NCBI GenBank assembly: GCA_039815185.1
Contig: JBCBZT010000011.1
Coordinates: 128,474 to 192,473, forward strand
From: Cyanobacteria bacterium P01_A01_bin.123
Lineage (GTDB): Bacteria > Cyanobacteriota > Cyanobacteriia > Phormidesmidales > Phormidesmidaceae
Reading direction: 5' to 3'
Length of the DNA stretch: 64,000 nucleotides
In this document: positions 4,715 to 26,009 of the stretch, piece after piece
How the letters are laid out: the number at the start of each line of letters is the position of its first letter
Position numbering within the stretch: the first letter of the stretch is position 1
Notes under the pieces: generated by a model
What the model was told of the DNA's origin: nothing
The model's database searches: none
What the model saw: only the letters and a program-made list of their open reading frames with translations
Position numbers and translations under genes: made by a program

Positions 4715-4747
4715 CCCCACAACATCCTCATACTTTCTAGTTATTAA
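4715..4747 (+). promoter_or_regulatory. CCTCA direct-repeat promoter module, copy 1 (before response regulator)
   Basis: CCCCA-caacat-CCTCA-tactttctagt-TATTAA. Confidence 0.7.
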
Positions 4748-4770
4748 TCCATTAAGTTATTAATCCATTA
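4739..4770 (+). repeat. Perfect 16-bp tandem duplication AGTTATTAATCCATTA x2
   Basis: Copies at 4739-4754 and 4755-4770. Confidence 0.9.
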
Positions 4771-4849
4771 ACTGTGCTTCATGACATGAGAGTAACCTTT
4801 CTTACTCCATGAGGGGAAACCCTCATCAGTAGAGATACTGGGAAAAGAT

Positions 4850-5314
4850 ATGTATGAATTGCAGCTAATACAACGCACTACTCCCAAAGTGTTAATGCAG
4901 TCTCATTGCTTACTTCGGTTACTCCTGCTTCGGTTACTCCTGATTGAGGATGTCGATGACCTCCAGGCTATTATTCAGTTCAGCTTGGAAGCGATCGTGG
5001 GATGTCAGCTCACTTCGACTAAATCAACCCAAGATTGGTTGAAAGTATTACAAGATAGTGCACCTGACGTGATTCTTTTAGATGGACAATCCAATAGTGC
5101 TCATATTTTGTCCCAGCTTAAAAAAAGTTGGTTGACGCGAGACATCCCCGTCGTTTGCCTGGTTTCGCGCGATCGCATGGATGATCAGTTACAGGCCAAA
5201 CAAGCAGGAGCCGCTGCCATTGTGGCTAAACCCTTTGATCCGGGCTTTTTAGTAGAGATAATTTTGAGCATCGTTGGACCGCATTCCCCTCAACGGAATT
5301 TTTCATCTTCATAA
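4850..5314 (+). CDS. Single-domain (CheY-like) response regulator
   Basis: LLIEDVDD, PDVILLD (phospho-Asp), IPVV, AKPFDP; no output domain. Confidence 0.85.
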   Translation: MYELQLIQRTTPKVLMQSHCLLRLLLLRLLLIEDVDDLQAIIQFSLEAIVGCQLTSTKSTQDWLKVLQDSAPDVILLDGQSNSAHILSQLKKSWLTRDIPVVCLVSRDRMDDQLQAKQAGAAAIVAKPFDPGFLVEIILSIVGPHSPQRNFSSS

Positions 5315-5339
5315 CATCCTCATACTCTCTGGATAATTT
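5307..5339 (+). promoter_or_regulatory. CCTCA direct-repeat promoter module, copy 2 (before IF7-like gene and N-ATPase operon)
   Basis: CTTCA-taacat-CCTCA-tactctctgga-TAATTT; overlaps the upstream stop codon. Confidence 0.75.
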
Positions 5340-5406
5340 AATAGCTGAAAGGAGTTCTCAACCGAATCCACTTTGACTCCGTAGCTATTGATTAAAGGAG
5401 AGAGAG

Positions 5407-5652
5407 ATGTCTACTCAGGAAACAGCCCGTCAGAACATAGCTCAACAGCGGCAACATCAAAAACACCAAACACAATCAATGCTAGAGCGAACCGAAGCGG
5501 AATCTGCTGAGATCAACGACGTTGAAATTCAAGAAGAAACTCGTGAAGCACTCACTCGGGGACGCCAGAAAGAGCAGCATACCGTCCAGTCTATGCAGCG
5601 TCGCTTGATAGATGAAGTCGAAGGTTCTAAAGAATTAGGTGATCCTAATTAA
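5407..5652 (+). CDS. Small protein with two GS-inactivating-factor (IF7/GifA)-like repeats
   Basis: MSTQETAR...QSMLERTEAE resembles the IF7 N-terminus; SD AAGGAG upstream. Confidence 0.65.
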   Translation: MSTQETARQNIAQQRQHQKHQTQSMLERTEAESAEINDVEIQEETREALTRGRQKEQHTVQSMQRRLIDEVEGSKELGDPN

Positions 5653-5789
5653 ATAGCACAAGCGTTGACTCCAGTCAGTGGATAATCTTTTCTGAGCTAA
5701 AGACTCAATACTCCGAAGGGGATAAAGCTTTAGCAATCACTCGATCAATTTTCAAGCCTGAAAGCATAGCATTTCAGGAGGTTTATAAG

Positions 5790-6023
5790 ATGAAAGAAAG
5801 AAAATATCAAAATAGCTTCTTGAAGGATTTTTTGGCCTATCTTAACCAGCCATTGTTTGATAAAAATAAGCGTACCTACTTCAATCCGCTAACCTTTAGA
5901 AAGGTCTCTAACGTTAAATTGCTAGAACGATGCTGGCAGCTTGACTATGAGATAGAGGCATATCGTTTACGATTAGAATTTCGTTGGCAAGAGATAGGTC
6001 TTTTATTAGGAATATCGCCATGA
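5790..6023 (+). CDS. Hypothetical small protein
   Basis: SD AGGAGG before ATG; stop overlaps the next ATG (ATGA). Confidence 0.6.
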   Translation: MKERKYQNSFLKDFLAYLNQPLFDKNKRTYFNPLTFRKVSNVKLLERCWQLDYEIEAYRLRLEFRWQEIGLLLGISP

Positions 6024-24283: not shown

Positions 24284-24285
24284 AG

Positions 24286-24318
24286 CCTCACAAAATCCTC
24301 AACTCTACTCCCTAGGCT
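24286..24318 (+). promoter_or_regulatory. CCTCA direct-repeat promoter module, copy 8 (before hoxW-hypAB)
   Basis: CCTCA-caaaat-CCTCA-actctactccc-TAGGCT, in a 75-bp intergenic gap. Confidence 0.8.
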
Positions 24319-24358
24319 TAAAGGTGAATACCTCTATCCCCAAGGAGACTTACCCCTA

Positions 24359-24889
24359 ATGCTTGCTTCCCCAAAAACTCAGGTCTCTACCCAATACGAC
24401 TTTTTGATCATTGGTTACGGCAGCGAACTACGAGGGGATGATGCCGTGGGTCCTCGGGTTGCGATGGCTGTGGCTGAATGGCAACTCCCGTCAGTTAAAT
24501 CGCTGGCAGTTCACCAGCTGACACCAGAACTGACCGCCGATATGGCCCAAGCCCACTACGTGATTTTTGTGGATGCCTGCGGTAGAAGCTGCGCCCAAAC
24601 GATTCAAATCGATCCGATTGGGGTTAGCAAATCGACATCTGATGTTATCCCCGCTGGGACTCACAGCAATACCCCCTCGGTCTTACTCAGCCTGACCCAG
24701 CAGCTCTACGGTCACCATCCCCAGGGCTGGCTGCTGCAAGTTTCCACTGAATGTTTTGATTTGGGTAGTCAGCTTTCTTCAACGGCTTGTCAAGGTTGCG
24801 ATCGCGCCCTCAGAACCATTGAACAGTTCTTCAAAACCTATCGACGGCCATTCTTAATGGGCCAAGCATCATGCATGAAATCAGCCTGA
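24359..24889 (+). CDS. hoxW: Hydrogenase maturation protease HoxW
   Basis: IIGYG.ELRGDDAVG, HQLTPEL, VIFVDA. Confidence 0.9.
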   Translation: MLASPKTQVSTQYDFLIIGYGSELRGDDAVGPRVAMAVAEWQLPSVKSLAVHQLTPELTADMAQAHYVIFVDACGRSCAQTIQIDPIGVSKSTSDVIPAGTHSNTPSVLLSLTQQLYGHHPQGWLLQVSTECFDLGSQLSSTACQGCDRALRTIEQFFKTYRRPFLMGQASCMKSA

Positions 24890-25212
24890 TGCAGGCAGCG
24901 CTATCTGTCGCGATAGATCATGCCAAAGCAAACGGAGCCAGCAGAATCCACCGGATTCAACTGCAGGTCGGCGCGTTATCCGGCGTGGTACCTGATGCAT
25001 TGGATTTTGCTTTTGATGTCGTTAGCGCTGGCACCCTGGCAGAAGACGCTGAGCTAAAGCTAGAAACCATCCCCACCTTGTGTTACTGCGCCCATTGTCA
25101 GCAAACCTTTCAGCCATCAGGCTGGGTTTATGACTGTCCTCATTGCCATCAGCTCAGCACTGATATTCGCCAGGGTCAAGACTTAGAACTCACATCGCTG
25201 GAGGTTTCGTGA
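24871..25212 (+). CDS. hypA: Nickel chaperone HypA
   Basis: MHE start, two CxxC motifs. Confidence 0.95.
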   Translation: MHEISLMQAALSVAIDHAKANGASRIHRIQLQVGALSGVVPDALDFAFDVVSAGTLAEDAELKLETIPTLCYCAHCQQTFQPSGWVYDCPHCHQLSTDIRQGQDLELTSLEVS

Positions 25213-25213
25213 C

Positions 25214-25984
25214 ATGTGTGGAAACTGTGGATGCCAAACTGATCAATCACCGTCAATGGAAATTGATGCTCGACAGATCCTGCATTTACATCAAAACGTG
25301 CGGGCTAAAAATGACCAGTATGCAGTGCAAAATCGGGTTTTGTTCCGCCACCTGTTAGCGCTGAATGTGCTGGCTTCCCCTGGTGCAGGCAAAACTGCGT
25401 TAGTTCAGCGCCTGCTGCAAGATCTGCATCTGATTTCGGGGGCTGACCCACTGCATAGTCGAGATGTGCCAATACGGGCTGGGGCGATTGTCGGCGATCT
25501 TGCCACCGATCGCGATGCTAAGCGATTGCGCCAAACCGGAATTCCAGTCGTGCAAATTACGACGGATAATCTCTGCCATTTAGATGCCCACAGCATCGCC
25601 CAAGCCGCCCAAAAGCTCGATCTCGCCAACCTCGATCTATTGATTATTGAAAACGTGGGTAACCTGGTCTGTCCTGCTGCCTACGACCTGGGAGAAGACC
25701 TCCGCATTGTGCTGATGTCGGTTACCGAGGGAGAAGATAAACCACTGAAATATCCCACCATGTTCAAGTCGGCCCACGCAGTCGTGATCAGCAAAATCGA
25801 CCTCAGCGAGGTCGTCGGGTTCAAGCGGGATGAAGCCCTGCATCACCTGAGTTTGGTTGCACCCCAGGCGCTAATTTTTGAGCTTTCTGCTGTCACGGGT
25901 CAGGGATTGGCAAATTTTTACGCCTATCTAGGACAGGAGATCTTTCAATGTCAGGCGAAGCAGGATCCGGTTCCAGCGTCATAA
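25214..25984 (+). CDS. hypB: Hydrogenase nickel GTPase HypB
   Basis: MCGNCGC, SPGAGKT, ENVGNLVCPA, EGEDKPLKYP. Confidence 0.95.
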   Translation: MCGNCGCQTDQSPSMEIDARQILHLHQNVRAKNDQYAVQNRVLFRHLLALNVLASPGAGKTALVQRLLQDLHLISGADPLHSRDVPIRAGAIVGDLATDRDAKRLRQTGIPVVQITTDNLCHLDAHSIAQAAQKLDLANLDLLIIENVGNLVCPAAYDLGEDLRIVLMSVTEGEDKPLKYPTMFKSAHAVVISKIDLSEVVGFKRDEALHHLSLVAPQALIFELSAVTGQGLANFYAYLGQEIFQCQAKQDPVPAS

Positions 25985-26009
25985 CTTCCTCAAACTCTTC
26001 GCTTATTCT
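25977..26009 (+). promoter_or_regulatory. CCTCA direct-repeat promoter module, copy 9 (before DUF355-hypFC)
   Basis: CGTCA-taactt-CCTCA-aactcttcgct-TATTCT; overlaps the hypB stop. Confidence 0.75.

Follow-up and report, generated by a model that had tools for sequence, protein, structure and literature searches.

The N-ATPase and hydrogenase island and its boxes

The DNA analysed here (the window, 64,000 nucleotides; G000:C6:128474-192473, where G000 is the present genome, Cyanobacteria bacterium P01_A01_bin.123) carries an island of N-type ATPase, hydrogenase (hox) and hydrogenase maturation (hyp) genes, and a 33-base direct repeat with a predicted -10 box (here called the box) recurs in front of them. 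An earlier note, made from the sequence alone, had listed nine plus-strand copies. All nine were found where it had placed them, and the genes downstream carried the names that it had given:

4715..4747, + strand, box 1 (repeat and predicted -10), upstream of a single-domain receiver gene
4850..5314, + strand, single-domain receiver; best matches besides itself are receivers encoded with the candidate regulator described below (29-34% identity)
5307..5339, + strand, box 2, upstream of three small open reading frames (ORFs) and then the N-ATPase operon
6202..13135, + strand, N-type ATPase operon atpD-C-Q-R-B-E-F-A-G
13982..14014, + strand, box 3, upstream of usp-usp-hoxE-hoxF (14057-17478)
17591..17623, + strand, box 4, second half-site CACCA, upstream of hsp20 (17718-18185)
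18640..18672, + strand, box 5, upstream of a short ORF, a 161-amino-acid ORF of no family and hoxU (19333-20064)
20169..20201, + strand, box 6, upstream of pstB (20231-21046) and hoxY (21069-21611)
22296..22328, + strand, box 7, upstream of a CBS-pair protein gene (22385-22819) and hoxH (22844-24283)
24286..24318, + strand, box 8, upstream of a hydrogenase maturation protease gene, hypA and hypB (24359-25984)
25977..26009, + strand, box 9, upstream of an adenosine-kinase-family (DUF355) gene, hypF and hypC (26046-29160)

Tandem half-sites with an 11-base period were present in all nine sites. The pattern C..CA-N6-CCTCA-N11-TA was matched by eight copies, the ninth (17591) having CACCA as its second box. 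The -10 part read TANNNT in six copies and had its T one base later in three (4715, 13982 and 22296). As had been noted by eye, the 33-64 kb part of the window held zero pattern matches, and there was none anywhere past 26 kb. No match was found on the minus strand of the window, nor anywhere in it with an N12 spacer, and scanning it with a matrix built from the nine sites gave nothing further above 16.4 bits.

Occurrence in the genome and geometry of the element

Over the whole genome, the pattern with the N11 spacer occurred 37 times, against 8-18 times for N9, N10, N12 and N13. The nine-site matrix found 45 sites of at least 18 bits, compared with 1-7 for five column-shuffled matrices. In 1.12 Mb of DNA from other genomes, choosing sites by nothing but the repeat gave 127 with an 11-base half-site period, and none with the reversed matrix. 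TA stood at spacer 11 in 118 of the 127 and TAnnnT in 88, so the -10 box is an independent feature of the element, and the fixed-geometry direct repeat with a -10 box in place of a -35 box, as first described in this window, held elsewhere. The consensus of these sites was TCCTCACAAGTTCCTCAAATT-N7-TAnnnT and that of the element overall TCCTCACAAGTTCCTCA-N11-TAnnnT, i.e. two 7-base half-sites with an 11-base period, followed by 11 bases and TAnnnT. From the usual placement of a -10 box, the repeat would lie at about -41 to -24.

A matrix made from the 127 sites, which is independent only for its -10 part because the repeat part of the window matrix had served to select them, scored the nine window sites at 25.6-38.3 bits. 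It found 35 sites of at least 18 bits in the present genome, with 0-3 for three shuffled controls; none of the 35 lay inside an ORF of at least 150 amino acids, although such ORFs make up 75% of the genome. On contig C6, sites upstream of the window preceded nifJ and genes for a phosphoribosyltransferase, FtsH and a metallo-beta-lactamase-fold protein. More were found on C100, C101, C49, C29, C59, C97, C104, C113 and C121, several as back-to-back pairs. These results indicated that the repeat is almost certainly a real regulatory element.

The repeat might instead be a mobile-element relic, or the site of a regulator that represses in air and leaves the box under stress. The sites do overlap the -35 region, and the islands are often plasmid-borne or duplicated. 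However, rigid spacing to a -10 box without a separate -35 box is activator geometry, known from PhoB-type promoters, and the sites have a rigid 11-base spacing and no separate -35 consensus. Conservation was limited to the 33 bases, always co-directional with a gene start, which together with the avoidance of long ORFs also argues against both ideas; we consider them very improbable.

Partial duplicates of the island with boxes (hsp20-CBS, a usp pair, ppsA, a pentapeptide gene and a hydrogenase protease gene) were seen on C100, C101, C49 and C59. Some of them may represent a second strain, since the assembly is rated 5.99% contaminated.

Distribution and target genes

The strict pattern CYYCAYAANWTCCTCA-N11-TA was present in 135 of 401 genomes of the class, covering 82 of 170 genera, and the reversed pattern in one of the 401. 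In a GTDB-wide scan, 72 of the 80 matches listed had cyanobacterial titles. One of the few strict matches outside the cyanobacteria (L178:31-690, Chthonomonas) stood directly before a response regulator gene.

Among the GTDB matches listed, the first ORFs behind a box included hsp20 (5), usp (5), nifJ (4), ppsA (4) and pflA/pflB (3), then pfk (2), CBS proteins (2) and a phosphoketolase, hoxE, a hydrogenase protease and an acetate-CoA ligase; an Acg-family oxidoreductase and a ribosome hibernation factor were also included (of the 79 ORFs, NCBIfam was run on 38 and the others were named by eye). Overall, boxes stood before usp, hsp20, CBS, ppsA, pfk, nifJ, pfl, xfp, hox/hyp and N-ATPase genes. 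Box-rich islands occurred on plasmids, with 22 sites of at least 14 bits in 100 kb of the Acaryochloris plasmid pREB4 and nine of at least 16 bits in 29 kb of a Stanieria plasmid. Strains in culture that carry the box include Chlorogloeopsis fritschii PCC 6912, with at least three strict sites, Acaryochloris MBIC11017, whose regulator is AM1_D0171, and Stanieria PCC 7437. The earlier note had proposed a regulon of the N-ATPase/hydrogenase island; the boxes of the island stood, and the extent proved too narrow, the box marking a class-wide fermentation and stress regulon.

Two small ORFs recurred behind boxes in many genomes (L136, L150, L154, L199; G000:C104:31742): a Cys-rich one, starting like MNxCPCCS and without an NCBIfam match, and a sulfur-transferase-like one of 130 amino acids.

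A candidate regulator

The box was unlike the cyanobacterial boxes with which it was compared, as the earlier note had held: each consensus used matched none or one of the nine sites. The consensus sequences of SphR, HLR1, NtcA, PhoB, Crp and Fnr matched none, and those of CopR and ManR one each with mismatches allowed. The L-box of RcaC, with three mismatches allowed, matched none. A Pho-box reading was rejected, no SphR/PhoB consensus being matched at the nine sites.

That a winged-helix regulator encoded outside the window acts on the box was borne out to the extent that a candidate was found whose occurrence follows that of the box; the scope first given to it, switching on the island, was again too small for a class-wide regulon. 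The candidate, encoded at G000:C101:107766-109586, had the domain order REC-winged helix-HPt-REC and the helix signature VRTHIKGLRQK. The same architecture was seen in AM1_RS34120, L018, L045 and L054, and a REC-winged helix-HPt-REC(-GGDEF) regulator in the middle of the pREB4 island had C101:107766 as its best match in the present genome. Six such regulator genes were found in 40 box-rich regions of other genomes, some in regulator-kinase-receiver operons or fusions: regulator, kinase and single-domain receiver were contiguous in L037 and L054 and fused in L018.

The winged helix of the C101 protein alone failed to separate paralogues, and a five-sequence profile was therefore used. It scored a held-out Acaryochloris protein at 155 bits and the RfpB-like and RcaC-like proteins of the present genome at 120 and 108 bits. 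The profile was run over the same 401 genomes, with 14 candidates scored per genome. The strict motif was present in all 48 genomes with a regulator at E ≤ 1e-44 and in 96 of 106 at ≤ 1e-40, against 39 of the 295 others; in genomes with only other RcaC-like regulators it was present in 35 of 170. Dropping the five training genomes left 91/101 with the regulator versus 39/295 without. Within four families of 38-39 genomes, the rates with and without the regulator were 20/20 vs 5/18, 20/21 vs 4/18, 12/12 vs 1/26 and 7/9 vs 10/30.

When genomes were split by hoxE and regulator, the motif occurred in 45/49 with both, 9/71 with hoxE only, 46/52 with the regulator only and 22/207 with neither (17 intermediate genomes, tallied apart, had it in 8). 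Thus the motif follows the regulator, not the hydrogenase. Of 20 genomes with the regulator, 6 had a site within 2.5 kb upstream of hoxE, as did 1 of 20 others, some of these regions being cut by contig ends; the hydrogenase is only a part-time member of the regulon. Around the regulator genes themselves, a site was held by 18 of 30 loci of 3.2 kb (five of the 30 being training loci) and by 18 of 20 loci of 10-14 kb. Among five apparent exceptions, three had a divergent VRTH regulator within about 2 kb of a box, one (G172) gave an ambiguous picture and one (G337) had no close regulator. Five of the regulator genomes without a strict match, when looked at, each had a matrix site nearby. In a tree, the box-linked regulators formed two supported subgroups (98 and 99).

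The box could be read by another protein, such as a fusion of the C113 type described below, a universal OmpR protein like SphR or RpaA, a Crp/Fnr protein or an alternative sigma factor, with the VRTH regulator a passenger or a target. Boxes upstream of some regulator genes (L054) fit a target as well as autoregulation; two boxes flank the C113 gene, genes for a sigma-70 factor and a Crp/Fnr protein also lie on pREB4, and in the window pstB is preceded by a box. Universal regulators would however leave unexplained why, of 71 genomes with hoxE and no regulator, 62 lack the box. The three closest pstB paralogues had no site within 6 kb upstream, the failure of the SphR, HLR1, Crp and Fnr consensus at all nine sites also speaks against such a reader, and the loci of the sister regulators (below) share the promoter architecture. 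We regard another reader as improbable. Judged by these sequence comparisons, the box is very probably bound by the VRTH-signature group, which in all likelihood acts as an activator.

The present genome has two candidate regulator paralogues, on C101 and C113. The second (G000:C113:230770-234443, the regulator at C113:230895) is a regulator-kinase fusion with the helix VRVH, and its two flanking boxes read CA for TA at -10; its G238 orthologue was also flanked by boxes. The box-adjacent proteins L124 and L298 fell outside both tree subgroups. A Leptolyngbya boryana plasmid regulator (L252) was not accepted as a clear member, since its helix differs and it has a single weak site (18.4 bits).

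A kinase with a FixL-like PAS domain

Further parts of a relay in the present genome were a kinase (G000:C101:118798-121920) and a receiver (C101:121972-122358); the receiver of the window (4850..5314) probably serves in feedback or as part of the relay. All five kinases initially found with the regulator had one PAS domain in common. By sequence searches, its best solved relatives were FixL and DosP, whose FixL/DosP-type heme-PAS domains form cluster 3 of PMC10468136. The heme-ligand His, on the F-alpha helix, aligned in register with FixL and DosP, and so did the Arg that is replaced by Ala in 1y28; the His was kept in 18 of 20 PAS sequences and the Arg column in 15. A structural model gave a PAS-like order of helices and strands (pLDDT 87.7). 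The PAS domain of the kinase thus appears FixL-like and is predicted to bind heme.

A profile of this domain found it in 100 of the 401 genomes. A match was present in 68 of the 106 regulator genomes, in 60 of them within 6 kb of the regulator and often in the same reading frame; without the training genomes, 56 of 100 had a match within 6 kb of the regulator. Since 11 candidates were scored per genome, some PAS domains may have been missed. In 12 control RcaC-like loci (L108-L119) the profile had no match. These controls came from motif-negative genomes, which makes their site count (1/12) circular; it was left unused, and their lack of heme-PAS was used. The sole match in the present genome was the C101 kinase, whose PAS domain spans residues 567-683 and which also carries CBS and GAF domains.

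Between regulator and kinase (G000:C101:109616-118574) lay genes that by eye resembled those for sulfide and sulfur handling (rhodanese, Rieske, SQR-like, YeeE/YedE-like and ArsR). In G181 regulator and kinase were adjacent; a box at C101:118611 points into the sulfide/sulfur-like block.

Proposed relay and its input

With moderate confidence, we favour the reading that the box is a conserved promoter element bound by an RcaC/RfpB-type regulator, which a kinase with the FixL-like, predicted heme-binding PAS domain would switch on when O2 falls, activating fermentation and dormancy genes. In darkness, photosynthetic O2 production would stop and respiration would drain the O2 that remained. Deoxy-heme would then release the kinase, by analogy with FixL, and phosphate would pass through the single-domain receiver to the regulator with its HPt and REC domains, in the manner of RcaE-RcaF-RcaC and RfpA-RfpC-RfpB. 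A phosphorylated regulator dimer would bind the tandem half-sites, which lie near -41 to -24, and recruit RNA polymerase in place of a -35 box.

Relevant data were offered by Table S3 of PMC5295598, which lists differential genes of Acaryochloris only; the mapping of its genes to boxes by coordinates was made in this analysis. Under microoxia, of ten listed box-led first genes eight were down (seven at least twofold), one was flat and one up, compared with 5 down among 20 other listed genes of AM1_D0141-D0256 (Fisher p 0.007). Left out of this count were five genes that probably follow others in operons, all of them down. This supports co-regulation of the box-led genes. The 5' ends of transcripts of two Acaryochloris genes lay downstream of the predicted starts, by 13 and 18 bases, these being coverage edges rather than start-site maps. 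The text of PMC5295598 has the plasmid ATPase genes slightly up in microoxia, and its Table S3 gives a log2 value of -2.15 for atpD (AM1_D0157, L016).

Several findings weigh against the proposed relay. The direction of change is one: in lit cultures bubbled with N2 for 7 days, the box-led Acaryochloris genes fell instead of rising, and most fell under high O2 too in the same data. The PAS domain was matched in just 68 of the 106 regulator genomes, and a profile search gave no heme-PAS match in the pREB4 kinase AM1_D0198. In the present genome regulator and kinase lie 9 kb apart, on a contig other than that of the window. Because the genomes share ancestry, the tallies do not count as independent tests, and there were exceptions on both sides: 39 of 295 genomes below the regulator cut-off had a strict match, among them G337 (99% complete, four matches), where no close regulator was found, and 10 of the 106 regulator genomes had none. 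The tree spoke neither for nor against a single origin of the two box-linked subgroups, and the C113 paralogue, with its changed helix and flanking boxes, nests in one of them.

The same box and regulator group could also have a main input other than oxygen, either energy charge through CBS pairs or light and dark through GAF, with the heme-PAS domain optional. The CBS and GAF domains of the C101 kinase would suit this, as would the CBS-PAS hybrid kinases without a heme-PAS match in box-rich islands (C100:6767, AM1_D0198, L025), the 38 of 106 regulator genomes without such a match, and the fall of the Acaryochloris genes in lit microoxic cultures. However, the five kinases initially found with the regulator had only the heme-PAS domain in common; it was fused to the regulator in 7 of the 12 PAS-bearing loci among L088-L107, and L018 and L041 had no GAF or CBS match. 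Among the targets are enzymes sensitive to O2 (PFOR, PFL with its activase, and hydrogenase). In Synechocystis, the induction of hox and nifJ on entering dark microoxia is transient (PMC11368403), which makes the 7-day Acaryochloris sample a weak test of low-O2 induction. A plain light-sensor reading of the C101 GAF domain was rejected, the domain being divergent and absent from some partner kinases, and survives only within this alternative. We consider a non-oxygen input rather unlikely. Because the Acaryochloris data point away from plain low-O2 induction, it is kept as the main rival, and oxygen sensed through the heme-PAS domain is held to be the main input with some reserve, as probable rather than established.

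Comparison with known systems

RcaE-RcaF-RcaC and RfpA-RfpC-RfpB, the phosphorelays of chromatic and of far-red acclimation, each comprise a kinase, a phosphotransfer protein and a DNA-binding regulator (PMC5737509). The proposed relay resembles them in its kinase, single-domain receiver and REC-winged helix-HPt-REC regulator, and the candidate winged helix was 57-60% identical to those of the RcaC-like and RfpB-like proteins of the present genome. The promoter layout XXXCA-N6-XXXCA-N11-TA was shared as well: at the RcaC-like locus here (an rcaE/F/C-like cluster) the phycocyanin promoter read GCACA-N6-GCACA-N11-TA, and in the far-red cluster YTTCA-N6-YTTCA-N11-TAnnnT stood before apcB and psbA homologues (genes of both clusters named by eye). 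It differs from them in its recognition helix (VRTH vs VRSH and VTAH), its half-site CCTCA, its targets (fermentation, not light harvesting) and its shared sensor, the FixL-like PAS domain that the control RcaC-like loci lacked. That the candidate is RcaC or RfpB itself was rejected, since it branches in the tree separately from the G000 RcaC-like (L010) and RfpB-like (L012) proteins. The YTTCA-N6-YTTCA repeats of the far-red cluster (C95:132661, 132713 and 134758), two of them with N11-TAnnnT, are a candidate RfpB box.

FixL and DosP share the homologous PAS domain with the heme-ligand His in register. The output of FixL is FixJ and a Crp/Fnr protein on an inverted repeat, whereas the relay proposed here, as read from sequence, would be a multi-step one ending in an OmpR-type winged helix on direct repeats. 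In content only, the regulon resembles the mycobacterial DosR (DevR) dormancy regulon, with Usp, Hsp20, a CBS-pair protein, an Acg-family oxidoreductase, a phosphoribosyltransferase, phosphofructokinase and a ribosome hibernation factor in common; DosR is a NarL-type protein with heme-GAF sensors and a palindromic box.

Control of hox and nifJ in model cyanobacteria has been ascribed to CyAbrB1/2, SigE, LexA and RpaA, with ChlR, an Fe-S one-component sensor of tetrapyrrole genes, as O2 sensor (PMC13421787, PMC11368403); for hox and nifJ, the 2026 review (PMC13421787) names CyAbrB1/2, SigE and RpaA, and for O2 sensing it names ChlR. The target genes are partly the same as here, but these accounts, in their passages on such control, name no direct-repeat box or two-component O2 sensor (PMC13421787, PMC11368403). 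Neither the box nor the relay turned up in a literature search, which had subscription journals and bioRxiv supplements outside its scope. Taken singly, all parts belong to known kinds; their combination and the box seem not to have been described before.

Other genes of the island

The pstB gene of the window is full length, scores above the NCBIfam cut-off and stands alone between hoxU and hoxY with its own box; its nearest paralogue in the genome (64% identity) has no box upstream. The 81-amino-acid ORF at 5407-5652, called IF7-like before, is Gln/Arg-rich and had no family match of its own. A similar-looking box-led ORF of Microseira (L141:806-1027) matched the IF7A model below its cut-off, and for this reason a glutamine synthetase inactivator may belong to the regulon. 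At the right edge of the island (29097-30330), a phoH-like gene in pieces and an apparent IS6-family transposase fragment (named by eye) lay in DNA of lower G+C.

Meaning for cyanobacterial life without oxygen

In model strains, the switch to fermentation and hydrogen in dark anoxia has so far been explained by global factors only (CyAbrB, SigE, LexA, RpaA). What the present analysis adds is one defined box, a regulator group that can be named and a candidate sensor of O2. The box predicts regulon members in more than 100 genomes, many of them small proteins of no family, and places the N-ATPase operon in the fermentation programme; it may also be useful, as a compact promoter part, in engineering cyanobacteria to control enzymes sensitive to O2. 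We see it as evenly balanced whether a quarter to a third of cyanobacterial species have a dedicated heme-based O2-sensing phosphorelay, a third sister of RcaEFC and RfpABC, which runs a DosR-like night and anoxia programme of fermentation, hydrogen, N-ATPase and dormancy proteins. If so, this would be the missing switch from O2 to fermentation in cyanobacteria of mats, soils and crusts, one relay chassis, with three DNA boxes to match, would have changed its wiring from light to oxygen, and the N-ATPase would be tied to fermentative life.

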